Source: a virus
Strand: one strand, 5' to 3'
Length of the DNA: 13,721 nucleotides
Virus genome (UHGV): UHGV-0121712
Part shown: piece by piece, positions 661-13,671 of the stretch
Numbering within the stretch: the stretch's first letter is position 1
Layout of the letters: the number at the start of each line of letters is the position of its first letter
Position numbers and translations under genes: made by a program
The notes under the pieces: generated by a model
Seen by the model: only the letters and a program-made list of their open reading frames with translations
Told to the model about the DNA's origin: nothing
The model's database searches: none

Positions 661-1866
661 ATGATGAGGTTCAATAAATTGGAACAAAAAAAGAACAGAA
701 TCCTTTATTTTGATGGGTTACGCGGACTAATGGCTATAATTGTTGCTTATGGTCATTTTTTTGGTGAAACAAAGCTTTTTATGCTTTCACACTACCCAGA
801 GGCATTCCCTTATTGGCTTTCAAAATTCTACGAATTTACTGAAACGACACCATTCGTATTCACTATCAATGGTAATTTTGCTACTATAGTTTTTTTCATC
901 TTATCTGGCGCAATTCTTCTTGGCGCCTTCAAAGCAAATACAACATTTATAGCATCATTAATACGTCGTTTTATTCGACTTGGTGTTCCTGTATTTGCTT
1001 CCTGTATTATTGGATATATCTTAGTAAAATCTGGATTTCGTTATGATCACGATGAAAATGTAGCTTTCGATGAAGTAATAAAGCAAGGCATTCTTACGCT
1101 ATATACCACAGATTTTTCAACTAGATTTCTTAACCCTGTAATATGGTCAATGTCGACTGAGTTTATGGGCTCGCTGTTACTATTAATTGTTGTTCAGGTA
1201 GGAAGAAATAATTCAAGGCATGGCATTCTTTTATTATTTTTATTTACTATCTTTAGTTACGGATATTATGTGTTTTTTCTTCTCATTGGCGCATGGATAT
1301 CCATCTTGTTTGCCGACGAAAAAACAAGCAATTTATTTAACAACAAAGAAAAACACGTTATTACTTTGCTAATGATATTAGCTATAGTGATACTTCAAAG
1401 TTGCCCGGCATTCTATCCCTGGGGTTGGATTTTTATACCAGGGAACTATTTTGTTGCCCCATTAATAAACATGCAAGACTTATCGATTCCTGGGATGTTC
1501 CCTTACCACCCATACGAGTTTTTACGTGGTGTCGGTGCAATATTATTGCTAATTCTAGTAATATCCAGAGGATACATTCGCGATTTCCTATCCACTAAAC
1601 TTGTTCAATTTTTTGGGAAAATTTCTTTCTCTTTATACCTTGTTCACTGGTTAGTTCTTTCATCTGCAATAATGCCAATAAACCTATATGTATATATTCA
1701 TACAAATAACGTTTATTTAGCATACATTGCTTCCTTTTTAGTATTCGTCACTCTTTCTTTAATTGGTTCAATGATATTTTATCAATTAATAGAGAAAAAA
1801 TCAGTGATACTTAGCCGTACCGTAGGAAAAACCCTAGATAATTTTATCAGTAAAGCAAAAATATAA
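661..1866 (+). CDS. Integral-membrane acyltransferase, acyltransferase family 3 (OafA/Oac-like); likely O-acetylase of a surface polysaccharide
   Basis: 401-aa ORF from the first ATG (listed ORF starts at an upstream TTG at 616). N-terminal RILYFDGLRGLMAIIVAYGHF motif typical of acyltransferase family 3, many hydrophobic segments, strongly AT-rich codon usage unlike neighbouring genes, followed by an intrinsic terminator. Confidence 0.8.
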   Translation: MMRFNKLEQKKNRILYFDGLRGLMAIIVAYGHFFGETKLFMLSHYPEAFPYWLSKFYEFTETTPFVFTINGNFATIVFFILSGAILLGAFKANTTFIASLIRRFIRLGVPVFASCIIGYILVKSGFRYDHDENVAFDEVIKQGILTLYTTDFSTRFLNPVIWSMSTEFMGSLLLLIVVQVGRNNSRHGILLLFLFTIFSYGYYVFFLLIGAWISILFADEKTSNLFNNKEKHVITLLMILAIVILQSCPAFYPWGWIFIPGNYFVAPLINMQDLSIPGMFPYHPYEFLRGVGAILLLILVISRGYIRDFLSTKLVQFFGKISFSLYLVHWLVLSSAIMPINLYVYIHTNNVYLAYIASFLVFVTLSLIGSMIFYQLIEKKSVILSRTVGKTLDNFISKAKI

Positions 1867-1874
1867 CCACACAA

Positions 1875-1900
1875 GGCTCCCTAAAAAGGGAGCCTTTTTT
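1875..1900 (+). terminator. Rho-independent terminator of the acyltransferase gene
   Basis: GGCTCCC / TAAAAA loop / GGGAGCC followed by TTTTTT, 8 nt after the stop codon. Confidence 0.75.
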
Positions 1901-2084
1901 ATAATGGTTGATTATCGATTGGGTGATCTGGATGTAATTTTCAATCTGTTTTCGCCATCCTCAATACAGTTAAAAATAAGTACTGTAAACCAAAATACTG
2001 GATATAAAAAACAGGAATGCTGGTTGCTAAAAACTTATCTAGAAAAATTATCCGCCAGTTCTCACCTAGCGACTTATTATCCAA

Positions 2085-2252
2085 TCAACCTACGGCATGC
2101 TGAGGGAATTGCTTCCAAAAGTTTGTCAATCTCTCATCAGATTCATCAACTTCCCCCAAAAACTGGTAGTAATCCGGGTCTGCCGGGGATGCAAAAACAG
2201 AGACAATTTCTGTTTCTTTCTCATCAGAGAACTGCACATATACTGTTGACAT
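2085..2252 (-). CDS. Small protein at the tail-fibre assembly chaperone (gpG) position, possibly a truncated remnant
   Basis: Short ORF directly downstream of the tail-fibre gene. Coordinates use the internal Met (MSTVYVQF...); the listed ORF extends to 2327 but then overlaps the fibre gene by 58 nt. Much shorter than typical chaperones. Position-based call only. Confidence 0.3.
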   Translation of the reverse strand: MSTVYVQFSDEKETEIVSVFASPADPDYYQFLGEVDESDERLTNFWKQFPQHAVG

Positions 2253-2269
2253 TAATACCCCCCATGCCC

Positions 2270-3424
2270 CTAAATGGTATAACCATTGATACCAATGGTT
2301 GCCGTTGAAACTGCAGGTGTTGTCCATGAGAATTGGTAATAGATATTCTGGACAACAGGTAGTTGCATTTCGAAGTAGATATCGGTGCCAATGGCACCTG
2401 TTGTTCCGGCATAAGCCTGGAAGAAACCAACTCCGTTGCTATCTGATGCCATTACTAGCGTGGCCGCCCCGGCTCCGGCTCCTGAATTACAGAATGCATA
2501 ACCTGAGCATGATATGGCATTCTGCGGAACTGCTGCGCTCAATCCTATTGGGGCATATCCACCTGGGTTGCTGCTTGTGTTCAGCACGTCCACGCGCGGG
2601 ATGCAAAATTTTCGACCTCGCTGGTACCCATTCAGAAGCAAAGAGCCGCTTGTTGTTCTCCAGACGGATACGAGTGCGCTCGCCGTATATCCCGCTGGCA
2701 TGTTTGCACCGCCGTAGACTGTGGGCGCAACGACGGTTGTCGTGTTAACACCAAGTAATGCTGAGGTGTTGGTCGTTGGGTTGTAAATAAGGTAAATAGC
2801 AACCCAACCACTGGCAGGGGCTGCTCCTGTATCCATCCCGCCCGCCCCAGTCGTGGTGAGGTTGATAGTTTCGCTTACCGAACTTACACGGTACTGCTTG
2901 CCAGATAATGACTCACCAACAATAACCTGGTCAGCGGTGAATGTTGCTGATGCCGACGCTATTGCCACGCTCATTTTCTGGTTAACAGCCTGACCAACCA
3001 CGCCGGTGAATGATTCTCGCATCTTGAGGTAATCACTTAGCGGCGACCACCCAGCTGAAGAAGTATTAGGGTCGTTTGTGTTGTTGTTGATAGTGCTGAT
3101 ATAAATCGTTGCGCCGTCATCACTGATGAGAACAGCTCCAAGAGGATACCCTCCAACCGCCGTTGAAAAATCTGAGTCAAAAGCATTAAGAGCGCCTGCG
3201 CTAGACCATCTGCAAAGGGAAGACAACTCATACAAGATTTGATTCATGTCCTGCCCTTTGGGAGGAAGGCCCCCGGCAGATTTCAAAATCATTGTTATTG
3301 GTGGGAATCCTAAATCGTAGGATGCTGTATTATCTCCAGCTGGAGTTGTCGGCAGAAGATCCTCTCTTTGACCATTTACTCCAAAAGGTTTTGGTTGTTT
3401 TTTGGGTGAGTCAGAGCGATTCAT
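2270..3424 (-). CDS. Tail fibre protein (P2 gpH position)
   Basis: 384-aa ORF starting 2 nt after the upstream gene. N-terminal region (GFPPITMILKSAGGLPPKGQDMNQILYELS...) resembles tail-fibre N-terminal anchor domains as I recall them; C-terminal half is Gly/Ala/Thr/Ser/Asn-rich like receptor-binding fibre tips. Confidence 0.7.
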   Translation of the reverse strand: MNRSDSPKKQPKPFGVNGQREDLLPTTPAGDNTASYDLGFPPITMILKSAGGLPPKGQDMNQILYELSSLCRWSSAGALNAFDSDFSTAVGGYPLGAVLISDDGATIYISTINNNTNDPNTSSAGWSPLSDYLKMRESFTGVVGQAVNQKMSVAIASASATFTADQVIVGESLSGKQYRVSSVSETINLTTTGAGGMDTGAAPASGWVAIYLIYNPTTNTSALLGVNTTTVVAPTVYGGANMPAGYTASALVSVWRTTSGSLLLNGYQRGRKFCIPRVDVLNTSSNPGGYAPIGLSAAVPQNAISCSGYAFCNSGAGAGAATLVMASDSNGVGFFQAYAGTTGAIGTDIYFEMQLPVVQNIYYQFSWTTPAVSTATIGINGYTI

Positions 3425-3426
3425 AC

Positions 3427-4065
3427 TTAATTCCTATAAAATGTGCCATCATTAAACGGGTAGGCGTCAGATGAAAAACCGAAATAAGGACTAATAATTT
3501 TTCGAATATTTACCTGAACACCACTAGGAACTGACATTACTTCATAATTTGTGAGAATAGATTCCTCGTATGGTGCAAGTTCAAACTCGAATGTTATTCC
3601 AATGGTCATATCTCGATAATTCACACAGTATGCCCTTCCTCTTTGAAAAAATAATATCTTTAAAAACTTGTTGATTTCTGGAATCGTAGCAATACTTATG
3701 TTCGTAAACGCTTTGCAAAATATGAGTGTTCTGTAAGCCTCGTCACTCAATCTAACATTTGTTGTCTCCTGTGCTCCTCCAAAAAAAGGAGAGTTGTTGA
3801 ACGGAGCGGGGTAATTTGGTTCTGCATTATCAGCTTCACTGAATCCGAAGGAATTGGTCTCTATAGGTGAGTTAATATAGCGACTTATCCCTACTATTTT
3901 CCCCCACATATCCAGGCCGAATGTATCACAGGTAGTCAAATCCCATACTTTTTTAATAAACTCATCAGTGAAATCATCAAGGCTAATTGCCTGATTAAAG
4001 GTATCAATGATGGATAGTAATTTTTTGCTTGCAGAGTACTGGGTAAGAATTGTGTCCTCCCACAT
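3427..4065 (-). CDS. Baseplate / tail-fibre-proximal protein (P2 gpI position)
   Basis: 212-aa ORF between the J-like gene and the fibre gene; RBS-like GGGGGA upstream. Assignment by synteny, not clear sequence recognition. Confidence 0.55.
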   Translation of the reverse strand: MWEDTILTQYSASKKLLSIIDTFNQAISLDDFTDEFIKKVWDLTTCDTFGLDMWGKIVGISRYINSPIETNSFGFSEADNAEPNYPAPFNNSPFFGGAQETTNVRLSDEAYRTLIFCKAFTNISIATIPEINKFLKILFFQRGRAYCVNYRDMTIGITFEFELAPYEESILTNYEVMSVPSGVQVNIRKIISPYFGFSSDAYPFNDGTFYRN

Positions 4066-4075
4066 ACATTTCCCC

Positions 4076-5305
4076 CTACGATAATGTAACAGTGATATCT
4101 GATTCCTGAATGGTTGGAACCTGGTCTATGCCCATAGTCACAGCCGGTCCGTATAGTGAACCATCGAGAGAAACTTCAAGAGACAAAATTCCAACTGTAT
4201 CAGGAGATATTGAAATAACAGGGGCATAGTATTTACCAGCATTTATCGTCGAACCAATTCGTGCCTTTCCAATACCCTCATATCCTCCATTGAACACAGT
4301 GACAATCATTTCCTTTACTTGTTTAGTAATATCACTTGGGGGATTTAGTGAAGCATCGACATTTACCTTAAAGTAAACCCGCGTAGGTGATGCCTTTTGC
4401 CATTGCATTACATAAGATGGATATGGCGGCATGTAATTAACGTTATCGTAAACAGTGAACGTTGTATTACCATTCATATTGGCCCCGGGGTTATAAGTAT
4501 TGAATATTGACTCAGCAACATCCGTATCAGCCCCGCCATAAACACAAATATAAACAGAATGCGCAAGAATCGGGAAATTCGTTGTTCCTTTATTTACTGT
4601 TTCTGCAGTTCTGTTTGACCATACGTAAGCATCAAGCACACCATCAGTCGCAAGTAACGCGGCTAATGTAGATGCGTCCTGATTTCGACTGTTTCTGGCA
4701 ACTGATTGTCTCCGGCGAGTTTCAAAGGCGATCCGTGATTCAACATCAACACCAACGACTCCAGGGCTAGTATTATTTACAGCATCCCACCCGGAAACGG
4801 CTCGATAAATCTGGTTCAGTGAACCTGCGGCACACGGAATCGGCCCGGTTGTTGTGTTGACAAACTGCACATCAACAGAGCCTGATGAGGGTATTACAGC
4901 ATTATCAATTGACTGATATATATACCCGCTCGTATCCACAGCGGTACTCCCTGCTGGTATTGTTGTTCCAACCTGACCAATGCATGTTGCTGTAACAACT
5001 GTCCCCTGAGCAGCGATCCGCTCCATAAAGTAAATCCGACCAATCCCGTCCTGGAATCTGCCGGTTGAAAAGTCAGGGTTAATTTGATTAAACAAACAAA
5101 GAAGCTTGTCGTATTCCTGAGCGATAATTTCAGTGTCAGACTGGGCGATCTGCCCTTGCGGTGAACTCAGTGACTGACTTGCGCCACCGCCAAGGGCCGT
5201 TGACATGTCTGTAAGTCTTCCCGCCAATACATCTGCTATATCGGGGACTGAAAGACCGTTTTCAGTGATGGTTACATCAGGAACAGCCGTATTTAATGTC
5301 GTCAT
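4076..5305 (-). CDS. Baseplate J-like protein (P2 gpJ / T4 gp6 position)
   Basis: 409-aa ORF; ATG overlaps the stop of the upstream gene (ATGA); size and position consistent with the baseplate J family. Confidence 0.65.
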   Translation of the reverse strand: MTTLNTAVPDVTITENGLSVPDIADVLAGRLTDMSTALGGGASQSLSSPQGQIAQSDTEIIAQEYDKLLCLFNQINPDFSTGRFQDGIGRIYFMERIAAQGTVVTATCIGQVGTTIPAGSTAVDTSGYIYQSIDNAVIPSSGSVDVQFVNTTTGPIPCAAGSLNQIYRAVSGWDAVNNTSPGVVGVDVESRIAFETRRRQSVARNSRNQDASTLAALLATDGVLDAYVWSNRTAETVNKGTTNFPILAHSVYICVYGGADTDVAESIFNTYNPGANMNGNTTFTVYDNVNYMPPYPSYVMQWQKASPTRVYFKVNVDASLNPPSDITKQVKEMIVTVFNGGYEGIGKARIGSTINAGKYYAPVISISPDTVGILSLEVSLDGSLYGPAVTMGIDQVPTIQESDITVTLS

Positions 5306-5661
5306 AAGGTGGCCTGTGCAATATTACCATTGATATCTGTAACGCGGATTGTCCCGCGAGTTGTGCGTGTATTCTTGTCAAAGAAAACTGACGCCAGAGC
5401 ATCCTCAACAACGGGTAATTTGAGTGCTTCAGCCTGCATTTTCTGAGCAATAAAACCAGGAGATGGTCGCCTGCCAAGAACTTCTGCCTTCCATGGGATC
5501 CCAAGTGTATTGTCGTAATAACACTCTCCTGAAAACACCAGGCATGCACTGGCGACATCCTGAGCAACAGAATATGATTCTTCTGCGATCGCCAGATTGC
5601 CATTTCCGTCAAGCGTCAAGTCCCACGTAGAAGTGTCCAGCTGCATAGTTCTGTATGTCAT
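5302..5661 (-). CDS. Small baseplate wedge protein (P2 gpW / gp25 position)
   Basis: 119-aa ORF, ATGA-coupled on both sides, between the spike and J-like genes. Confidence 0.55.
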   Translation of the reverse strand: MTYRTMQLDTSTWDLTLDGNGNLAIAEESYSVAQDVASACLVFSGECYYDNTLGIPWKAEVLGRRPSPGFIAQKMQAEALKLPVVEDALASVFFDKNTRTTRGTIRVTDINGNIAQATL

Positions 5662-6350
5662 GTCGGTTTATCCGTTGCATTGGAATTTATTGTTGACCCA
5701 CCACTTTGTATTCCTGAAACAGAATGTTTGTGATTGTTATAGTTGTCCCTTAAATTTTTAACAGTAGATGACTGTGAGTCTGCGTTATCCTGAATATTGC
5801 CACTAACTTTAAGTAAAGGCGTATTCATGTTGACTCCATCAGGAGCATCAATATTTAACGATGAGCATTTGATATTTAGTGGGTTAGGCGTGGTTATATT
5901 TATTGCACCGTCAGCGAATTCAATGAATTGAGTAGGTGAAATGTTTAATACCCCACCAAGATAAATCGCATCCGATTTACTGTGTCGTCTTTTGCTTCCA
6001 GGTACTGATTCTTTACGATTTTTTCTTACCAGTGATGTGTCTTTGTCGCATACCGCAATCAGACCAATATCACCTGCCACAGGGTCCATAATTACAGCGC
6101 TGTTTCCTCTCTGCAACCGCCATACGGGAAGATCATATAAAACCGAGTTGGAAATCATTTTTCCTGTACGGTCTGTTCTGGTTAGTAAAGGAAGAACATC
6201 AACAACTAAATCTGGTGCTTCCCCTCTGACTTCCTGAACTTTCGCTAACTCAATGAAGAAATATCCAGACATCAGCATCTCAAAAATATATTCCTGAGAT
6301 TGAGCCTCACTTACCTGAGCAGGCGTTGGAGTAAATAGTTGCTTATCCAT
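5658..6350 (-). CDS. Baseplate spike protein, gpV-like
   Basis: 230 aa from the internal Met MDKQLF... (listed ORF starts at an earlier Met inside the upstream gene). C-terminal NHKHSVSGIQSGGS resembles the P2 gpV apex motif (HTHKHPGDSGG) as I recall it. Start overlaps the upstream stop by 8 nt. Confidence 0.7.
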   Translation of the reverse strand: MDKQLFTPTPAQVSEAQSQEYIFEMLMSGYFFIELAKVQEVRGEAPDLVVDVLPLLTRTDRTGKMISNSVLYDLPVWRLQRGNSAVIMDPVAGDIGLIAVCDKDTSLVRKNRKESVPGSKRRHSKSDAIYLGGVLNISPTQFIEFADGAINITTPNPLNIKCSSLNIDAPDGVNMNTPLLKVSGNIQDNADSQSSTVKNLRDNYNNHKHSVSGIQSGGSTINSNATDKPT

Positions 6351-7332
6351 TATTCTGTTGCGCCTCTGCTCTTTGTTCCGCTGTTCTGGCGGCAATACAT
6401 ATTGAGTGCCATGAACCATTTGGCATCCATGATGATAATTCATGCCGAACGGAGGTTAACTTATACCTTCCGCTTGCATGTGGTAGTTCTGTTTTGATAT
6501 CCACATATCTTCCAATGCAAAGGAGAGATGAATATTGCGTCTGAAACATCAGCCCCCCATTTGAAAATACAGGATATCCAACAAGTCCGTATTCTCTGGA
6601 TATAAACGGAATTACATCATCTCTGTTTTTTTCTGAAGGCCAGAACTCTACTTTTGCAGGTGGCGTAGCTGACATTGCCAGTCCATAATCTGAACAGACT
6701 CTATAAAGTTGCTCAAAAACACTTCCTTCAAAATGCGGACTTCCTGATGTTGTCATCCCTTTTACATTATTAAACACAGCTTCATAACCTGCACTTGCAC
6801 AAATGGATGAGATGACATCTTCAACACTTTGCGCCCCCTGTGCTGTAAACGGGCTTGCTGGCATGTTCTGCAAATCAACATTAGAAGAAGCTGTTATCAT
6901 CAGGCTGCTTTCAGGAGCAGAATTCATGTTTGCTATTGATGAAAGCATCGTGCCAGAGAAAACAAGAGAATCATCGGCAAATACTTCAACATTTAGCTTC
7001 TGCCCTTCTCCAATAATACCATCAGCCTTCCCTGATATATCAGCAAGCCTTTCAATTCCTAACCCGTAAAGAGATATATCAGCCTGAGCGCCTCCCCGAC
7101 CGGTAACAAAGTTCAGGGATACTGTTGACTTAACATTTCTGATGGAGATTTTATTGTTCCCATTTTTATCAAATGCTGATGATTCATTCGTGAAGTCAAA
7201 CCGAAGACTGTGATTTTTATACAAGCTCGTTTTCCTCGATGTAGTACAGCAAGTAACGGCTACCCAAGCCTTCCCATTGCGGATCCGATTCCCCATCATT
7301 ATCAATGAAAATAAGGTCTCCCTTAAATCCAA
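6343..7332 (-). CDS. Tail or baseplate structural protein, possibly a hub component; true start uncertain
   Basis: 329-aa ORF in the coupled structural operon; its 5' end overlaps the upstream ORF by 116 nt in another frame. Confidence 0.45.
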   Translation of the reverse strand: MDLRETLFSLIMMGNRIRNGKAWVAVTCCTTSRKTSLYKNHSLRFDFTNESSAFDKNGNNKISIRNVKSTVSLNFVTGRGGAQADISLYGLGIERLADISGKADGIIGEGQKLNVEVFADDSLVFSGTMLSSIANMNSAPESSLMITASSNVDLQNMPASPFTAQGAQSVEDVISSICASAGYEAVFNNVKGMTTSGSPHFEGSVFEQLYRVCSDYGLAMSATPPAKVEFWPSEKNRDDVIPFISREYGLVGYPVFSNGGLMFQTQYSSLLCIGRYVDIKTELPHASGRYKLTSVRHELSSWMPNGSWHSICIAARTAEQRAEAQQNNG

Positions 7333-7519
7333 GGTAGGAATATCTTACCATCTTATTCCCATACAGACATGGAACGCCCTGCATAATTGGGACTTCATTA
7401 ACAGTTAAATCCATGTACATAAAACTCTGTCGCTGAACAAGTTTTATATTACATTGCTGACCAGACAGACTTACCGAAATGGACTGAGATTTGCTGGGAA
7501 GAACAGATACTGTAATCAT
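7217..7519 (-). CDS. Small structural-operon protein, or 5' part of a frameshifted gene continuing into 6343..7332
   Basis: 100-aa ORF whose ATG overlaps the upstream stop (ATGA). Confidence 0.4.
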   Translation of the reverse strand: MITVSVLPSKSQSISVSLSGQQCNIKLVQRQSFMYMDLTVNEVPIMQGVPCLYGNKMVRYSYLGFKGDLIFIDNDGESDPQWEGLGSRYLLYYIEENELV

Positions 7520-8331
7520 GTACTCGCCTTAACTATATTTTTTGCAATATCTGCCGCTTTTTTTGTTGCGCTGTTTGTGACTTCGAGTATTGGTTTGGAT
7601 ACCGTATCAAGAGCACTCTGGAATTCAGTCTTGATTGTGTCGGAGATTTTTCCAGTGATTTCGCCAACAGATGACTTCAGTGATGACCATGATTTACTTA
7701 GCTCATCGACAGTAGATTCCCTGGCTCCGCCATTGGTTATTTGCGGATCAACTCCTACACCTCCCTGTGACTTATTGTTATCCGTTGGCTTCTGTTCTGA
7801 CTGAGATCCAGAGAGGATAACCTCCATTTGCTGAATGACCTCCTGAAAATCAAGATAAACCGTCAGAAGAGTCACCCCTTTTTGAGAGTTAACTTCGTAA
7901 TAGTGGTCAACAAGGTCGAAACTCTCCAGAGTTTCCTTTGGCGTTTCAATATCGTATGTTTTTGCAGAGGACAGCATCATTTTGATTGTGTTCAGCGTGC
8001 TGTTCTGGCTTGTGAATGTGAGATCGAAAATATTCGGGATGTTGCCGGAAAAACCAGTAAGACCATTTACGATGATTGCGCATCTTACCCTGGCGGGTTC
8101 TTTAACTTTGTTGATGGACTGGTATTTCCCTTTCTCCACCGGAGCGTTTGTTATTTGCGCCCTGCCACTTGGCTGCACGGATGCCATACCACTGAACTCA
8201 AGAGCAACCTCGCCAGTTTCCCTGTCACGAATCACATACTGAGGATGCAGAACGCTGTCGATGATCGAAAGCGGAGAGCCACCACCGATAGCATTGAATA
8301 TGTCTGCTGTGTTTAAATCGATTATGCCCAT
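7516..8331 (-). CDS. First gene of the structural operon, function unknown
   Basis: 271-aa ORF with GGAGAG RBS immediately after the upstream terminator; C-terminal region rich in Ser/Thr/Lys with coiled-coil character; ATGA-coupled to the next gene. Confidence 0.5.
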   Translation of the reverse strand: MGIIDLNTADIFNAIGGGSPLSIIDSVLHPQYVIRDRETGEVALEFSGMASVQPSGRAQITNAPVEKGKYQSINKVKEPARVRCAIIVNGLTGFSGNIPNIFDLTFTSQNSTLNTIKMMLSSAKTYDIETPKETLESFDLVDHYYEVNSQKGVTLLTVYLDFQEVIQQMEVILSGSQSEQKPTDNNKSQGGVGVDPQITNGGARESTVDELSKSWSSLKSSVGEITGKISDTIKTEFQSALDTVSKPILEVTNSATKKAADIAKNIVKAST

Positions 8332-8342
8332 CTACTCTCCAT

Positions 8343-8369
8343 TAAACAAAAACCCAGCCGAAGCTGGGT
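8343..8369 (-). terminator. Rho-independent terminator after the antirepressor gene
   Basis: On the minus strand: ACCCAGC / TTCG loop / GCTGGGT followed by TTTTTGTTT, between the ant stop (8388) and the next start (8331). Confidence 0.75.
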
Positions 8370-8387
8370 CGTTGCGTTGGTTATCTG

Positions 8388-9266
8388 TCAGTAGTTATGT
8401 ACTGAAGGAGGTAATTCTTTATTCTTAAGTCTCATCCATGCGGAAAGATTCGTTGGTCCGTCTGGCTCATTGATATCAACATCTCGTGTGTGATTGATTA
8501 AAACGTCTCTCGCTATATCGATAATACGGGAGAACTCATAACCGCAGTCATGACATCTGCCGGAATAGTTCGATTGAATTTGTTTTAATGCCGGATACAG
8601 TTCGCGGAATAATGCCTGTGAACGGTTGGCATAATCCCATAACCATACAAGGCTGTTTGCTTCTTTTGCAGAAATCTCGTTGGTTTTCTTCTCTTGTTTG
8701 CCGATGAACTCACCTTCAAGCACTACCCTGTGGATGTACTCTACGGCCAGCGGGATTTGTTCAATTGAAAGTTCATCAATGCTGTCAATACCAAAACGCT
8801 GATGAACCATATTGTATGCATCGTCATAGCGAAGTCCTTTCTTTCCTACCAGCATGTTTACTGCATCGCGTAGCGGTGTTCTTTCCTCAACAGTGGTTTT
8901 CTTTCCTTTTACATACTCGCCATGTTTGCGAATTGAAGGCAGAACTTCTGCTGTTACCCACTTGCGGAATTTGTGTGGGACTGAACCTTTATTGACTGCA
9001 TCGCGGCAGCGCAGAACCAATGTATACATACCTGATTCGCTCACAATGCTTAGATTCTGCTCACCACCAAGGGTGTAACTTAAAGTTACTCCCTTTTCAT
9101 CGTCATCAAGTGCAGTAAGCGCCTTGCGTGAGTTAGTCAAAGCTAAAGCATCACAAACATCTTTAGCTACAAACCACGGCTCGCCGCACTTGTTAATGAC
9201 GCGAATTTCACTGTCGCCAAATTTGAAGATGGTGAAATCGTTTTGTGCCTTTGCTATACTTTTCAT
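8388..9266 (-). CDS. Antirepressor-like protein with N-terminal Bro-N domain
   Basis: 292-aa ORF. N-terminus ([14 protein letters not shown]...[16 protein letters not shown]) is a Bro-N-type motif; sits directly downstream of an Arc-like gene, as ant does in the P22 immI region. Confidence 0.7.
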
Positions 9267-9337
9267 GTCAATATTTCCCGATCAGATTTGTTGATGTAGA
9301 AGCCTCGCCAGTTCCCGCTGTCGGGGCTTCGTTATTT

Positions 9338-9484
9338 TTAGAGAGCATTCCGCATTTTCTCCCGGTACTTCAACCACCAAGCAAGTCCCTGAACCAACAC
9401 TGAGTTTTCTGACATCCCCTCTTCCTTGGCGATGCGTTTCACCTCCTCCTTAAAACGGTACGGATACCGATAACCGCGAGGCAT
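9338..9484 (-). CDS. Arc-family ribbon-helix-helix repressor
   Basis: 48-aa ORF (not in the six-frame track; decoded codon by codon): MPRGYRYPYRFKEEVKRIAKEEGMSENSVLVQGLAWWLKYREKMRNAL. Aligns in pattern with P22 Arc (PQFNLRWPREVLDLVRKVAEENGRSVNSEIYQRV): beta-strand, helix A, G-x-S-x-N-S turn, helix B. Weak RBS. Confidence 0.55.
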   Translation of the reverse strand: MPRGYRYPYRFKEEVKRIAKEEGMSENSVLVQGLAWWLKYREKMRNAL

Positions 9485-9591
9485 CGACTAATCTCGTTAG
9501 CAACGCGCATGAAACCATCTTCGGTATCTGCCACGCGATGCTCCACGACCTCCAGTTGAGGCCTGTAATCAGCTAACTTAACGACGCCCAT
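9439..9591 (-). pseudogene. Truncated N-terminal remnant of an O-like replication initiator
   Basis: ATG with strong AGGAG RBS. First ~34 codons (KLADYRPQLEVVEHRVADTEDGFMRVANEI) align with the lambda O N-terminus (KILNFGRGNFAGQERNVADLDDGYARLSNML) as I recall it; the frame then runs out of register into the arc gene and stops. No rest of O and no P follow. Confidence 0.4.
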
Positions 9592-9739
9592 GTTTCACTC
9601 CTGCTTTGGCTAGTCTGTAAACACCAACAAGGCGCTCTGCGAACGCCCTGTTATTTGCTGCGGCTACCACTAATCCCTCAGGTGAATCAGGGTGTCGAAT
9701 CTCTTCTTTTTCCTGGTATTTCTTACGACGTTTTGTCAT
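9578..9739 (-). CDS. Small basic protein between cII and the O remnant
   Basis: 53-aa ORF (MTKRRKKYQEKEEIRHPDSPEGL...) with RBS context ATCCACAGGAGTAATTATGAC, which I recall as the lambda O initiation region; its stop overlaps the start of the O remnant. Confidence 0.35.
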   Translation of the reverse strand: MTKRRKKYQEKEEIRHPDSPEGLVVAAANNRAFAERLVGVYRLAKAGVKHGRR

Positions 9740-9773
9740 AATTACTCCTGTGGATTGATCCAGTCTTTCTACA

Positions 9774-10052
9774 TCAGGCCTCGAAGAATTCGCCGTTCTT
9801 CGGGGCTTTTTCTTTTGTCAGCATTCTGGCTACTTTCTTAGCCAGTTCCGCCAACTCCTCGTCTTCAACACCCCATTCAAGAACAGCCAGAAGCATTCCC
9901 ATTTTGGGGATGAAGCTATCTTTCCATCGCGAAATTTGCGATTCATTAATCCCTAACGCGTCGGCAACCTTTCGCTGACCACGTACAGCAATTCGATTCA
10001 GGATGTTGCTTGTAATTGCATTCGCTTTCTTGCGAGTACTTGTAAGTTGCAT
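9774..10052 (-). CDS. cII: CII-type lysogeny activator (non-lambda allele)
   Basis: 92 aa from Met MQLTSTRKK...; conserved SQISRWK and MLLAVLEWGV motifs shared with lambda CII; upstream leader AAGGAAATACTTACATATG is lambda-like. Confidence 0.85.
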   Translation of the reverse strand: MQLTSTRKKANAITSNILNRIAVRGQRKVADALGINESQISRWKDSFIPKMGMLLAVLEWGVEDEELAELAKKVARMLTKEKAPKNGEFFEA

Positions 10053-10131
10053 ATGTAAGTATTTCCTTAGATAACAATTGATTGAATGTATGCAAATAAA
10101 TGCATACACCATAGGTGTGGTTTAATTTGAT

Positions 10132-10163
10132 GCCCTTTTTCAGGGCTGGGATGTGTAAGAGCG
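10132..10163 (-). promoter_or_regulatory. nutR (boxA CGCTCTTAC and boxB GCCCTGAAAAAGGGC on the minus strand)
   Basis: Reverse complement of 10155-10163 is the boxA consensus; 10132-10146 is the boxB hairpin; located between cro and cII as in lambda. Confidence 0.7.
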
Positions 10164-10171
10164 GGAATGTC

Positions 10172-11524
<1,353 letters not shown>

Positions 11525-11986: not shown

Positions 11987-12121
11987 ATGGATGCACAAAC
12001 ACGCCGCCGCGAACGTCGCGCAGAGAAACAGGCTCAATGGAAAGCAGCAAATCCCCTGTTGGTTGGGGTAAGCGCAAAACCAGTTAAAGGTATTCGCGAT
12101 AAAGGTAAATATCGGCAATAA
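11987..12121 (+). pseudogene. N: Truncated antiterminator N (first ~33 codons lambda-like, then unrelated tail and stop)
   Basis: MDAQTRRRERRAEKQAQWKAANPLLVGVSAKPV matches the lambda N arginine-rich boxB-binding N-terminus; it continues KGIRDKGKYRQ-stop instead of NRPILSLNRKPK..., giving 44 aa versus 107 in lambda N. Confidence 0.8.
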
Positions 12122-12404: not shown

Positions 12405-12623
12405 ATGTACTTGACACTTCAGGAGTGGAACGCTCGCCAGCGACGCCCAAGAAGCCTTGAAACAGTTCGTCGATGGGTACGCGAGTGCAGGATATTCCCT
12501 CCTCCGGTTAAGGATGGAAGAGAGTATCTGTTCCACGAATCAGCGGTAAAGGTTGACTTAAATCGACCAGTAACAGGTAGCCTTTTGAAGAGGATCAGAA
12601 ATGGGAAGAAGGCGAAGTCATGA
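12405..12623 (+). CDS. xis: Excisionase, lambda Xis
   Basis: 72-aa product MYLTLQEWNARQRRPRSLETVRRWVRECRIFPPPVKDGREYLFHESAVKVDLNRPVTGSLLKRIRNGKKAKS matches lambda Xis as I recall it; its 3' end overlaps int by 23 nt as in lambda. Confidence 0.95.
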   Translation: MYLTLQEWNARQRRPRSLETVRRWVRECRIFPPPVKDGREYLFHESAVKVDLNRPVTGSLLKRIRNGKKAKS

Positions 12624-13671
12624 GCGCCGGGATTTACCCCCTAACCTTTATATAAGAAACAATGGATATTACTGCTACAGGGACCCAAGGACGGGTAAAG
12701 AGTTTGGATTAGGCCGAGACAGGCGAATCGCAATCACTGAAGCTATACAGGCCAACATTGAGTTATTTTCAGGACACAAACACAAGCCTCTGACAGCGAG
12801 AATCAACAGTGATAATTCCGTTACGTTACATTCATGGCTTGATCGCTACGAAAAAATCCTGGCCAGCAGAGGAATCAAGCAGAAGACACTCATAAATTAC
12901 ATGAGCAAAATTAAAGCAATAAGGAGGGGTCTGCCTGATGCTCCACTTGAAGACATCACCACAAAAGAAATTGCGGCAATGCTCAATGGATACATAGACG
13001 AGGGCAAGGCGGCATCAGCCAAGTTAATCAGATCAACACTGAGCGATGCATTCCGAGAGGCTATAGCTGAAGGCCATATAACAACAAACCCGGTCGCAGC
13101 CACTCGCGCTGCAAAATCAGAGGTAAGGAGATCAAGACTTACGGCTGACGAATACCTGAAAATTTATCAAGCAGCAGAATCATCACCATGTTGGCTTAGA
13201 CTTGCAATGGAACTGGCTGTTGTTACCGGGCAGCGAGTTGGTGATTTATGCGAAATGAAGTGGTCTGATATCGTAGATGGATATCTTTATGTCGAGCAAA
13301 GCAAAACAGGCGTAAAAATTGCCATCCCAACAACATTGCATGTTGATGCTCTCGGGATATCAATGAAGGAAACACTTGATAAATGCAAAAAGATTCTTGG
13401 CGGAGAAACCATAATTGCATCTACTCGTCGTGAACCGCTTTCATCCGGCACAGTATCAAGGTATTTTATGCGCGCACGAAAAGCATCAGGTCTCTCCTTC
13501 GAAGGGGATCCGCCTACCTTTCACGAGTTGCGCAGTTTGTCTGCAAGACTCTATGAGAAGCAGATAAGCGATAAGTTTGCTCAACATCTTCTCGGGCATA
13601 AGTCGGACACCATGGCATCACAGTATCGTGATGACAGAGGCAGGGAGTGGGACAAAATTGAAATCAAATAA
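12601..13671 (+). CDS. int: Tyrosine integrase, lambda Int
   Basis: 356-aa product beginning MGRRRSHERRDLPPNLYIRNNGYYCYRDPRTGKEFGLGRDRR and ending ...DDRGREWDKIEIK, matching lambda Int as I recall it, including the catalytic-region HELRSLSARLY and HLLGHKSDTMASQY motifs. Confidence 0.97.
   Translation: MGRRRSHERRDLPPNLYIRNNGYYCYRDPRTGKEFGLGRDRRIAITEAIQANIELFSGHKHKPLTARINSDNSVTLHSWLDRYEKILASRGIKQKTLINYMSKIKAIRRGLPDAPLEDITTKEIAAMLNGYIDEGKAASAKLIRSTLSDAFREAIAEGHITTNPVAATRAAKSEVRRSRLTADEYLKIYQAAESSPCWLRLAMELAVVTGQRVGDLCEMKWSDIVDGYLYVEQSKTGVKIAIPTTLHVDALGISMKETLDKCKKILGGETIIASTRREPLSSGTVSRYFMRARKASGLSFEGDPPTFHELRSLSARLYEKQISDKFAQHLLGHKSDTMASQYRDDRGREWDKIEIK

Follow-up and report, generated by a model that had tools for sequence, protein, structure and literature searches.

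Gene content of the locus

The analysed stretch (the window) comprises 13,721 nucleotides of the UHGV virus genome UHGV-0121712, and its features are listed in Table 1. The nine co-directional minus-strand ORFs at 2085–8331, none of which contains an internal stop, form the tightly coupled operon described in the initial annotation, with exactly those coordinates: true ATGA overlaps were located at three junctions (271-aa gene/plug, spike/sheath initiator and sheath initiator/J), the others being two 8-nt overlaps and gaps of 2–17 nt. Using profile and PDB-sequence searches, seven of the nine proteins were assigned to baseplate or fibre families of contractile tails, and the proposed incomplete myovirus tail module was thereby borne out. 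None of the window's ORFs gave a sheath, tube or tape-measure family match in the profile searches, and head-gene families were likewise unmatched among them; upstream of the block, as annotated before, only the antirepressor gene and a terminator were found.

Table 1 Features of the window, with the evidence for each assignment
Feature	Position	Strand	Evidence
Acyl_transf_3 membrane acyltransferase, ~33% GC	679–1866	+	Pfam PF01757 5e-21; PHROG 3333 O-acetyltransferase; GC profile
Small 55-aa ORF 3' of fibre gene, function unknown	2085–2252	-	phrog_20339
Tail fibre, 384 aa, mosaic	2270–3424	-	PHROGs 12796/11518/1396 tail fiber
Baseplate wedge 1 (DUF2612/Phage_Wedge1), 212 aa	3427–4065	-	Pfam PF11041 3.7e-52; PDB 7kh1 XM1 gp17 5e-9
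Baseplate wedge J/gp47 protein, 409 aa	4076–5305	-	Pfam PF04865 1e-11; PHROG 6; PDB E217 gp44, 9b45 gp45-a, XM1 gp16
Sheath initiator (gp25/gpW-like), 119 aa	5302–5661	-	PHROG 120 9e-37; PDB Pam3 gp21 sheath initiator 2.9e-8; precomputed PF10934
Central spike, 230 aa, HKH	5658–6350	-	PDB E217 gp43, 9b45 gp44, SN gp41 ~1e-9; weak Pfam PF18352
Baseplate hub, 293 aa from TTG at 7224	6343–7224	-	PHROG 196 baseplate hub 1.3e-68; position as GF-2 and PA-1 'baseplate hub' genes
Baseplate plug, Pam3 gp18 family, 100 aa	7217–7519	-	Pfam PF22479 1.7e-24; PDB E217 gp33 1.4e-3
Probable tube initiator, 271 aa	7516–8331	-	Pam3 gp17 position; Pfam Dit_like 1.8e-4 (below cut-off); PHROG 1830
Intrinsic terminator, interval between ant and block	8370..8351	-	8-bp stem with 5 GC pairs, then T tract
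Antirepressor Ant (Bro-N + P22_AR_C), native immI part	8388–9266	-	Pfam; PHROG 245; same position in intact relatives and GF-2
arc 3' part, codons 11–53 of 53	9338–9470	-	Alignment with intact arc of L007, L001
18-bp relic of DnaB-type helicase gene, codons 283–288 of 459	9471–9488		Exact 24-nt match (9467–9490) to L005 within helicase gene
Replication-initiator gene, first 34 codons	9489–9591	-	Comparison with parental gene
pR operon remnant: orf53 9578–9739, cII 9774–10052, cro 10172–10387	9578–10387	-	Pfam HTH_3, Phage_CII; H37 annotation
cI-type repressor (HTH + Peptidase_S24)	10491–11123	+	Profile searches
134-aa ORF overlapping cI-type repressor	11120–11524	+	phrog_2651
Truncated lambda-type N	11987–12121	+	33 of 110 residues kept, then unrelated sequence
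Excisionase	12405–12623	+	Pfam
Lambda-type integrase	12601–13671	+	Pfam

The 271-aa protein is probably the tube initiator, since its gene is invariably the first one to follow the tape-measure gene or immI in GF-2, PA-1 and a Klebsiella phage; a PDB sequence search with it gave no match, and its single-sequence structure model (pLDDT 46) was too low in confidence for use. For the hub, the start used in RefSeq relatives is the equivalent of 7296. The HKH motif previously noted at the C-terminal end of a gpV-like spike was recovered at residues 207–209 of 230, aligned with the HGH of the NNHGH apex motif of solved spikes. Its weak Pfam match is to a family that we take to be Gp138_N, a spike N-terminal domain. 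In the program-made ORF list, the spike frame is given as 261 aa from an upstream ATG.

Assignment of the baseplate type

Judged by these matches, the block is a Pam3/XM1/E217-type (Mu-like) minimal baseplate. It follows the gp17–gp24 order of Pam3 gene for gene (PMC9942802), and the cryo-EM baseplates of cyanophage Pam3 (7YFZ), Vibrio phage XM1 (7KH1) and Pseudomonas phage E217 (8ENV/8EON) have the same components in the same order, i.e. tube initiator, plug, hub, spike, sheath initiator, wedge J, wedge 1 and fibre. Five window proteins matched chains of these structures by sequence, distantly (E values 1e-3 to 1e-14). Unlike these phages, the window lacks the sheath, tube and tape measure on which a baseplate would act, and its tube initiator is putative.

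The designation 'P2-type' was not upheld. With the P2 operon V-W-J-I-H-G, the block has in common its sequence of functions (spike, gp25-like, J, I-like, fibre), a Baseplate_J protein and an HxH motif towards the C-terminal end of the spike; the V-W-J-I-H reading of the initial annotation thus stands for the order of functions but not for the protein families. Pfam families of P2 V, W, I and G gave no matches among the window proteins (E ≤ 0.01), leaving Baseplate_J as the only one in common; the W-like protein is homologous to Sheath_initiator/Pam3 gp21, and the I-like one, functional counterpart of P2 gpI and Pam3 gp23, belongs to DUF2612/Phage_Wedge1. Moreover, hub and Pam3_gp18 plug genes lie directly upstream of the spike gene, as in Mu and Pam3 and unlike P2, whose hub gene gpD sits in a separate cluster.

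Intact relatives and native gene order

Intact E. coli prophages at lambda attB (e.g. FDAARGOS_1288) carry terL, capsid, DUF3383 sheath, tube and SLT tape-measure genes, an Arc-family (mnt-like) gene, arc and ant, followed by the seven baseplate genes of the window, with nucleotide identities to the block of 94% and 89.5%. This order recurs unchanged in GF-2, an isolated Edwardsiella phage, which also has lambda-like int, N, cI, cro, cII, O, P and Q. GF-2 and Edno5 (Gofduovirus) are myoviruses by electron microscopy (PMC6372524). They and the intact prophages agree with the window's phage type in the succession of tape measure, mnt-like gene, arc, ant, ~271-aa protein, plug, hub, spike, sheath initiator, J, DUF2612 protein and fibre, and in having lambda-like modules for int, N, cI, cro, cII, replication and Q. 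The J proteins of GF-2 and Edno5 are 67–68% identical to that of the window. The window differs from all these relatives in missing everything between codon 34 of the replication gene and codon 11 of arc as well as most of the pL operon, in its lambda-type integrase at lambda attB, and in fibre tip and cargo gene.

In this phage type, immI (mnt-arc-ant) lies natively between the tape-measure gene and the baseplate genes. By synteny and sequence, baseplate, antirepressor, immunity region and lambda-type integrase all come from one phage type, and the idea of a tail module grafted next to a lambdoid immunity region had to be abandoned, the relatives being lambdoid myoviruses in which the order tape measure, mnt-arc-ant, baseplate is native. 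Among 5,426 complete E. coli genomes, the baseplate block was found in 21 and the sheath–tape-measure block in 20; the stranded state (~1 of 21 block carriers) is therefore the exception, and a conserved arrangement is not supported.

The deletion junctions

The adjacency of the baseplate block to cII, cro and cI results from internal deletions, and their junction is legible at single-base resolution. At 9467–9490, codon 34 of the replication gene is followed by the 18-bp helicase relic and then by codon 11 of arc; left-parent homology stops at 9470 and right-parent homology begins at 9489. The relic is flanked by microhomologies (CCGA, 9467–9470, 4 bp; TA, 9489–9490, 2 bp) and hence marks two deletion junctions. 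Out-of-frame fusion of the replication-initiator start has created a chimeric 50-aa ORF (9439–9591). On the arc side, the first 10 arc codons, mnt and the mnt-arc intergenic region are gone; by analogy with P22, the latter would hold Pant.

The same junction was found on at least 20–24 contigs, 99.8–100% identical to the window (for the chimeric ORF, from independent samples: at least 24 contigs read, 41 index blocks, and 20 contigs listed in the cluster table). The carriers are thus clonal and the deletion is recent. A chimeric join of immunity-region and tail-region contigs might be suspected, as the sources are short-read metagenome and draft assemblies, but can hardly account for an identical junction, helicase relic included, across independent studies and assemblers, at a site without an assembler-misleading repeat and with microhomologies of just 2–4 bp; such an artefact was considered highly improbable.

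Within N, a further deletion of 4,418 bp (junction ~12077–12087) has removed most of the pL operon. The full pL operon is still present in other carriers of the replication-gene-to-arc deletions (L010, L012, L013, L017, L018), so the pL-operon deletion came later.

These scars also bear on whether the window could be an evolved phage satellite that has retained genes for integration and immunity and uses a baseplate and fibres of its own to redirect helper virions. Its compact size (~13 kb) and its content of int, xis, cI/cro/cII, ant and a baseplate–fibre set complete in itself would suit that role, and Ant could in principle derepress a helper prophage. The junction is, however, a scar comprising truncated replication, arc and N genes and a helicase relic; replication and packaging genes are absent from the window, just one att core is adjacent, which makes excision unlikely, and a sister remnant that has decayed differently is 99.9% identical in sequence, which points to very recent descent from a complete phage. 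A satellite is accordingly very unlikely.

Left arm, cargo gene and mosaic fibre

The acyltransferase, a probable O-antigen/LPS-modifying cargo gene, is directly followed by a terminator (1873–1896). The module at 1–2100 that includes it occurs in E. coli 720632 in a prophage remnant at the argW/yfdC site and is 99.3% identical to L004; the crossover between the two prophage types lies inside the 55-aa ORF (~2100–2187). Contig L009, identical to the window, reads ybhJ-ybhC-att core-int...acyltransferase-yfdC-mlaA, with a single lambda att core and then ybhC next after the integrase. In E. coli 720632, each of the two parental arms occupies its own locus, and the two are inverted relative to each other. 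It appears that recombination with a second prophage remnant replaced the left arm, presumably through a chromosomal inversion; the reciprocal junction of such an inversion was not seen. Adjacency to yfdC is based on one long short-read contig and one short independent contig spanning just the acyltransferase–fibre joint, and for this separate join alone an assembly artefact may be conceived.

The fibre is itself mosaic: its N-terminal part, which attaches to the baseplate, is peculiar to this phage type, 2600–3021 matches the fibre remnant of an SfV/e14-type prophage at ~99% identity, and the C-terminal part is divergent.

Reconstruction of the element

The baseplate and tail-fibre genes are genuine and left over from an ordinary E. 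coli prophage, and the window as a whole is very probably a defective E. coli prophage, i.e. the remnant of a lambdoid myovirus after internal deletions and an arm swap, now silent and decaying. The parent would have been a temperate lambdoid myovirus of ~42 kb with the architecture of Edwardsiella GF-2/Edno5, carrying lambda-like int-xis-pL-cI-cro-cII-replication-nin-Q-lysis genes followed by head genes, DUF3383 sheath, tube, SLT tape measure, P22-like immI and the minimal baseplate with fibre. In a first step, two deletions by illegitimate recombination (replication-gene codon 34 to helicase codon 283, and helicase codon 288 to arc codon 11) would have removed ~24 kb, comprising most of the replication gene, the helicase gene except its relic, nin, Q/pR', lysis, terminase, head, neck, sheath, tube, tape measure and mnt and, by analogy with P22, Pant, thereby placing the baseplate–fibre block downstream of cro-cII-ant. 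The later 4.4-kb deletion in the pL operon then truncated N. In a third step, recombination at ~2100–2187 would have exchanged the attR arm for the acyltransferase/yfdC arm of the second remnant, most simply by the inversion. The block probably survived because it lay at the far end of the late operon, adjoining attR and the cargo gene.

Expression, decay and retention of the block

The block is predicted to be transcriptionally silent because Q and pR' are gone, N is truncated and a terminator lies upstream. In a promoter scan, the sole strong leftward promoter-like site was 10443..10415, upstream of cro, and read-through from pR into the block after SOS induction is conceivable.

Compared with the intact relative L001, the block has a dN/dS of 0.065 (174 synonymous and 42 nonsynonymous differences). 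Among related remnants, the independent substitutions in 3427–8331, only four in number, taken from metagenome and draft contigs and in part possibly older than the deletions, were all nonsynonymous (0 synonymous), with a probability of ~0.001 under omega = 0.065 and ~0.35 under neutrality, calculated from the counts. Two of them, P178S in wedge 1 (lineage-specific, at an otherwise invariant proline) and A54V in J, alter residues that are invariant down to 40–55% identical phages. This pattern points to recent decay rather than retained function.

A domesticated module under selection might either release free baseplates or fibres after SOS induction, as adhesins or receptor decoys, or constitute a reservoir by which superinfecting GF-2-like phages are complemented, or with which they recombine, so that host range is altered. 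At face value, the nine intact frames are compatible with maintenance. By the standard of Pam3 the baseplate set is complete, and the assembly model for that phage has the baseplate built before tube and sheath; the block now lies downstream of the SOS-inducible pR-cro-cII-ant unit, and the shared fibre segment shows that the region does recombine. At least three differently deleted derivatives (window type, L007 type, 720632 type) retain the block, which could reflect selection as opposed to location near attR and the cargo gene. Against this, intact frames are explicable without selection among carriers so nearly identical, the post-divergence substitutions run counter to constraint, the routes of transcription are interrupted as described, the stranded state is rare among complete genomes, and PADLOC gave no matches. 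Domestication is thus considered unlikely. Most likely, the block is silent, decaying DNA that would be unable to build a tail and presumably persists only through the recency of the deletion and its place between possibly useful elements (immunity genes, acyltransferase).

The window resembles e14, CPS-53/KpLE1 and serotype-converting remnants, which are likewise internal-deletion remnants keeping integrase, some regulators, distal baseplate/fibre genes and LPS-modifying cargo near attR. The e14/SfV-type remnant at argW in E. coli 720632 (gp46, J, YmfQ, StfP) carries the same acyltransferase as the window; its baseplate is of the YmfQ/gpI type, in contrast to the DUF2612/plug type of the window, and the fibre segment alone is common to both.

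Gene content of the baseplate-fibre block

Positions 2085-8331, the extent that the initial annotation had given, are occupied by nine ORFs, all on the minus strand and free of internal stops, which are listed with the other features in the table below. The genes are tightly coupled, as had been noted, with three ATGA overlaps, two 8-nt overlaps and gaps of 2-17 nt at the remaining junctions. The C-terminal HKH motif reported for the spike was located at residues 207-209 of 230 and aligned with the HGH motif of the solved spikes E217 gp43, 9b45 gp44 and SN gp41. For this protein the mechanical ORF list gave 261 aa from an upstream ATG; the length of 230 aa was taken from gene calls in identical contigs.

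Profile and PDB sequence searches placed seven of the nine block proteins in baseplate or fibre families, with the Dit_like match of the 271-aa protein lying below the Pfam cut-off and the 55-aa product, of phrog_20339, unmatched in Pfam; searches of NCBIfam with all nine yielded no useful assignment. The 271-aa protein gave no PDB sequence match, also with a four-sequence profile, and its single-sequence AlphaFold model was unusable (pLDDT 45.7); its secondary-structure pattern is beta followed by helix. From its position as first gene, like that of Pam3 gp17, it is probably the tube initiator, which in baseplates of this type has a tube-like beta-barrel and a helical C-terminal domain.

Searches of Pfam and PHROG found no sheath, tube or tape-measure family among the window proteins, and upstream of the block stand just the antirepressor gene and a terminator, as first described. 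Head, terminase, lysis and replication genes are also absent from the window and are present in GF-2 and in the relatives L001, L002 and L005. PADLOC returned no defence-system match for eight window proteins, and nothing was found in the whole window by Rfam at gathering thresholds or by the tRNA scan.

Features of the window, with coordinates, strand and supporting matches
Feature	Position	Strand	Length and evidence
Strong terminator of acyltransferase	1873-1896		
Small ORF after fibre gene	2085-2252	-	55 aa; phrog_20339; no Pfam match
Tail fibre	2270-3424	-	384 aa; PHROGs 12796, 11518, 1396
Wedge 1	3427-4065	-	212 aa; PF11041 DUF2612/Phage_Wedge1, 3.7e-52; XM1 gp17
Wedge J	4076-5305	-	409 aa; Baseplate_J PF04865, 1.1e-11; E217 gp44, XM1 gp16
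Sheath initiator	5302-5661	-	119 aa; Pam3 gp21, 2.9e-8; PHROG 120; precomputed PF10934 Sheath_initiator
Central spike	5658-6350	-	230 aa; E217 gp43, 9b45 gp44, SN gp41, ~1e-9
Baseplate hub	6343-7224	-	293 aa; PHROG 196, 1.3e-68; start uncertain, RefSeq relatives start at equivalent of 7296
Plug, Pam3_gp18 family	7217-7519	-	100 aa; PF22479, 1.7e-24; E217 baseplate component gp33, 1.4e-3
Probable tube initiator	7516-8331	-	271 aa; sub-threshold Dit_like match; PHROG 1830
Intrinsic terminator	8370..8351	-	upstream of baseplate block
Antirepressor ant	8388-9266	-	Bro-N and P22_AR_C domains; upstream of block
Predicted Arc-like ORF	9338-9484	-	48 aa; MPRGY-RYPYRFKEEV...
Chimeric ORF	9439-9591		50 aa; fusion at deletion junction
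Strong terminator opposite 3' end of cII	9776-9808	+	14-bp stem and T tract
ORF overlapping cI stop codon	11120-11524	+	134 aa; hydrophobic N-terminus; phrog_2651; no Pfam or PADLOC match
Truncated N remnant	11987-12121		
Substitutions among remnants	3534; 3773; 5145; 5798		P178S (wedge 1) at 3534; A54V (J) at 5145

Type of baseplate

In Pam3, genes gp17-gp24 encode tube initiator, plug, hub, spike, sheath initiator, two wedge proteins and fibre (PMC9942802), an order which the block matches exactly, the tube initiator being placed by position. As in Pam3, XM1 and E217, a plug of the Pam3 gp18 family is located between tube initiator and hub, and the hub-spike pair, the sheath initiator and the J and wedge 1 heterotriplex proteins were all found in order. 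Judged by these families, the block appears to make up the full minimal baseplate of the Pam3/XM1/E217 (Mu-like) type.

The designation as P2-type was accordingly abandoned, as Baseplate_J (PF04865) is the sole family common to the P2 operon and the block. Unlike P2 gpV, the spike was unmatched by Phage_base_V in Pfam at E ≤ 0.01 and had just a sub-threshold match to PF18352 (Gp138_N), its nearest solved counterparts being E217 gp43 and SN gp41. The W-like protein had no match in the Pfam search, GPW_gp25 of P2 gpW included, and fits PHROG 120, Pam3 gp21 and the precomputed PF10934, whereas the I-like protein belongs to PF11041 instead of Tail_P2_I. A gpG-type fibre-assembly chaperone is missing after the fibre gene, where the phrog_20339 ORF is found instead. 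Nor is the window a tailocin or domesticated contractile injection system, which would combine the baseplate with sheath, tube, tape-measure and lysis genes and have no head genes; genes of these four kinds are absent from the window.

Native arrangement in GF-2-like myoviruses

The baseplate block was found in 21 of 5,426 complete E. coli genomes and the sheath-tape-measure block in 20, so that stranding of the former is exceptional. The prophage of E. coli FDAARGOS_1288 (L001) is integrated at lambda attB, flanked by ybhB/ybhC, in the order terminase, portal, capsid, neck, DUF3383 sheath, tube, SLT tape measure, Arc-family (mnt-like) gene, arc, ant, baseplate genes, fibre and gtrABC; strain Z1323CEC0013 has the same arrangement. 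The isolated Edwardsiella phage GF-2 shares this order and has a full lambda-like early region. Electron microscopy shows GF-2 and Edno5 to be myoviruses, and both carry lambda-like cI/cro/cII and a second regulatory region (PMC6372524). In GF-2-like phages immI (mnt-arc-ant) lies between tape measure and baseplate genes and is accompanied by a lambda-like immC; the window keeps ant, the 3' part of arc, cI, cro and cII. In Pantoea phage PA-1 and a Klebsiella phage the tape-measure gene is followed immediately by the baseplate block, and immI is missing.

Since ant and the terminator natively adjoin the baseplate genes, the module was not grafted next to a lambdoid immunity region, as had been proposed. 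The window is a derivative of a GF-2-like phage and not a functional member of that group. At the nucleotide level (megablast of 2000-9800), the phage collection gave matches to the ant/arc part alone and to none of the baseplate genes; GF-2, Edno5, IKEMa6-1, PA-1 and Klebsiella phages were recovered by protein-level search. Such GF-2-like lambdoid myoviruses form a rare lineage in E. coli, one with no nucleotide-level relative among the isolated phages of that collection. Naming its baseplate genes correctly may help annotators. In L001 an extra insert of ~850 bp with two small ORFs (25205-26053) is located between ant and the 271-aa gene, and alignments with the window overlap at 8348-8369, placing the terminator sequence on both sides of the insert.

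Deletion junction between the replication gene and arc

Homology to the immI side of the FDAARGOS_1288 prophage and of the sister remnant ERZ28640860 scaffold_1828 (L007) stops at 9470, inside arc codon 11, and homology to the lambdoid early-right region of L005 begins at 9489, corresponding to codon 34 of the replication gene. The intervening 18 bp, together with microhomologies of 4 and 2 bp (CCGA-TAACCGCGAGGCATCGAC-TA), form an exact 24-nt match within the parental DnaB-type helicase gene (codons 283-288), by which an origin as untemplated filler was ruled out. As this helicase relic is flanked by two microhomologies, the junction records two deletions instead of one. Both were microhomology-mediated, one of ~1.56 kb joining the replication gene to the helicase gene and the other joining the helicase gene to arc. 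Together they removed an estimated ~24 kb, as judged from L002 and L005: the greater part of the replication gene, the helicase gene except for its relic, nin, Q/pR', the lysis, terminase, head and neck genes, those for sheath, tube and tape measure, and mnt; by analogy with P22, the Pant promoter was probably removed as well.

The fusion gave rise to the chimeric 50-aa ORF. Read on the minus strand, an ATG within the helicase relic is in frame with the remaining arc codons and opens the predicted Arc-like ORF, which keeps most of the ribbon-helix-helix fold and lacks the first 10 residues; its operator/promoter region was presumably lost, by analogy with P22.

As in a cryptic prophage, the scars (replication codon 34, helicase relic, arc codon 11 and N residue 33) are collinear with the intact relative, and the truncated genes bear out the view of the module as an incomplete remnant of a myovirus tail. 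As a whole, the window represents a defective prophage of an ordinary kind. No special explanation is required here for a tail module left beside an immunity region, because the parent places the antirepressor region in the tail operon and two microhomology-mediated deletions account for the remainder; the case has little importance beyond annotation. The junction with its helicase relic, in carriers with or without the pL deletion, does provide a clean, datable case of stepwise prophage decay in E. coli.

pL-operon deletion and immunity region

A deletion of 4,418 bp at ~12077-12087 leaves the first 33 of the 110 residues of the lambda-type N protein and eliminates what followed of the pL operon. 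The retained 33 residues presumably hold the arginine-rich boxB-binding motif. The full pL operon persists in five carriers of the replication gene-arc junction (L010, L012, L013, L017 and L018), and the pL deletion is therefore later than the replication-arc deletions.

The 134-aa ORF overlapping the cI stop codon may be transcribed together with the repressor and have a role in lysogenic conversion or exclusion. The terminator opposite the 3' end of cII, which matched no Rfam family at gathering score, is at the position of the terminator of the lambda oop antisense RNA.

Maintenance or decay of the block

Whether the intact frames are still maintained for a function, a question raised by the initial annotation, was approached through the pattern of substitutions. 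Against the intact relative, the structural genes gave dN/dS = 0.065 (174 synonymous and 42 nonsynonymous changes), which is the signature of past phage life. Among the remnants, four independent differing sites were found in the core genes (3427-8331) and all four are nonsynonymous; for the deletion carriers counts are given in place of a dN/dS ratio, as synonymous core-gene differences number zero. Two of the changes affect Pro178 and Ala54, which are invariant even in phages of 40-55% identity. Calculated from the counts, four nonsynonymous changes out of four have a probability of ~0.001 at omega = 0.065 and of ~0.35 under neutrality.

Alternatively, the complete minimal baseplate-fibre cassette, now downstream of the SOS-inducible pR-cro-cII-ant, might be kept for a function that it still performs. 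It could serve in recombination or complementation as a reservoir from which superinfecting GF-2-like phages swap baseplate/fibre specificity, or it could supply free baseplate-fibre complexes that attach to O-antigen altered by the adjacent acyltransferase. On this view, the persistence of the block in three derivatives with different deletions would reflect selection and not positional accident. The exclusively nonsynonymous changes among the remnants speak against such retention; moreover, the prophage has lost Q and pR' and retains just a truncated N, a terminator stands ahead of the block and the sole strong leftward promoter-like site is upstream of cro. Retained function is considered very improbable, and it is concluded that the frames are presumably intact through the recency of the deletions and not through use of the module.

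Spread and sister remnants

At least 24 contigs that were read contain the chimeric ORF (41 index blocks; the cluster table lists 20 contigs), and they derive from independent metagenomes and sequencing runs. All carrier contigs are 99.8-100% identical to the window, and ERZ651857 NODE_18 is 100% identical across all 13,721 bases. The related protein clusters, those of the fibre and the acyltransferase, are all named Escherichia coli. A 40-mer across the junction had no match in GTDB contigs representing one genome per species, and the host was assigned through look-ups of exact proteins. As is typical of a cryptic prophage, the shared scar was inherited vertically in the host lineage (at least 20-24 near-identical contigs).

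In the sister remnant L007 the baseplate block is 99.9% identical and mnt-arc-ant is intact; different deletions, of 772 bp and 5,188 bp relative to L001, cost it the sheath, tube and tape-measure genes and part of the head genes. The same prophage has therefore decayed independently or in steps.

Left arm, possible inversion and fibre mosaic

Positions 1-2100 comprise a fragment of an IS5/IS1182 transposase (39-161), a low-GC (~33%) acyltransferase region (616-1896) and the acyltransferase terminator. With 99.3% identity they match the distal end of an e14/SfV-type remnant that E. coli 720632 carries at its argW/yfdC site. At lambda attB this strain has, in addition, a sister remnant of the window phage, both of whose att cores are kept, and the two parental arms stand at separate loci in mutually inverted orientation. 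A window-identical contig reads ybhJ-ybhC-att core-int ... acyltransferase-yfdC-mlaA-fadL, with a single lambda att core. The simplest reading, rated as probable because the yfdC adjacency is carried by one long short-read contig, is that recombination at ~2100-2187 between two prophage remnants caused a large inversion of the chromosome from lambda attB to the argW region. The carriers may also record a prophage-mediated inversion. A crossover anywhere across the shared fibre segment 2100-3021 was considered and rejected, as the SNP pattern puts it at ~2100-2187, inside the small ORF.

Pantoea phage PA-1 has an acyltransferase too (26% identity), located between tail genes and integrase. The fibre gene is a mosaic of three parts, with 3021-3424 specific to the window phage type, 2600-3021 ~99% identical to the fibre remnant of the e14/SfV-type prophage and 2270-2600 just ~72% identical to it. 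GC content reaches 53% over 2501-3000, and one junction carrier with a full pL operon (L012) has a patch of 11 SNPs at 2872-2942 within the fibre gene.
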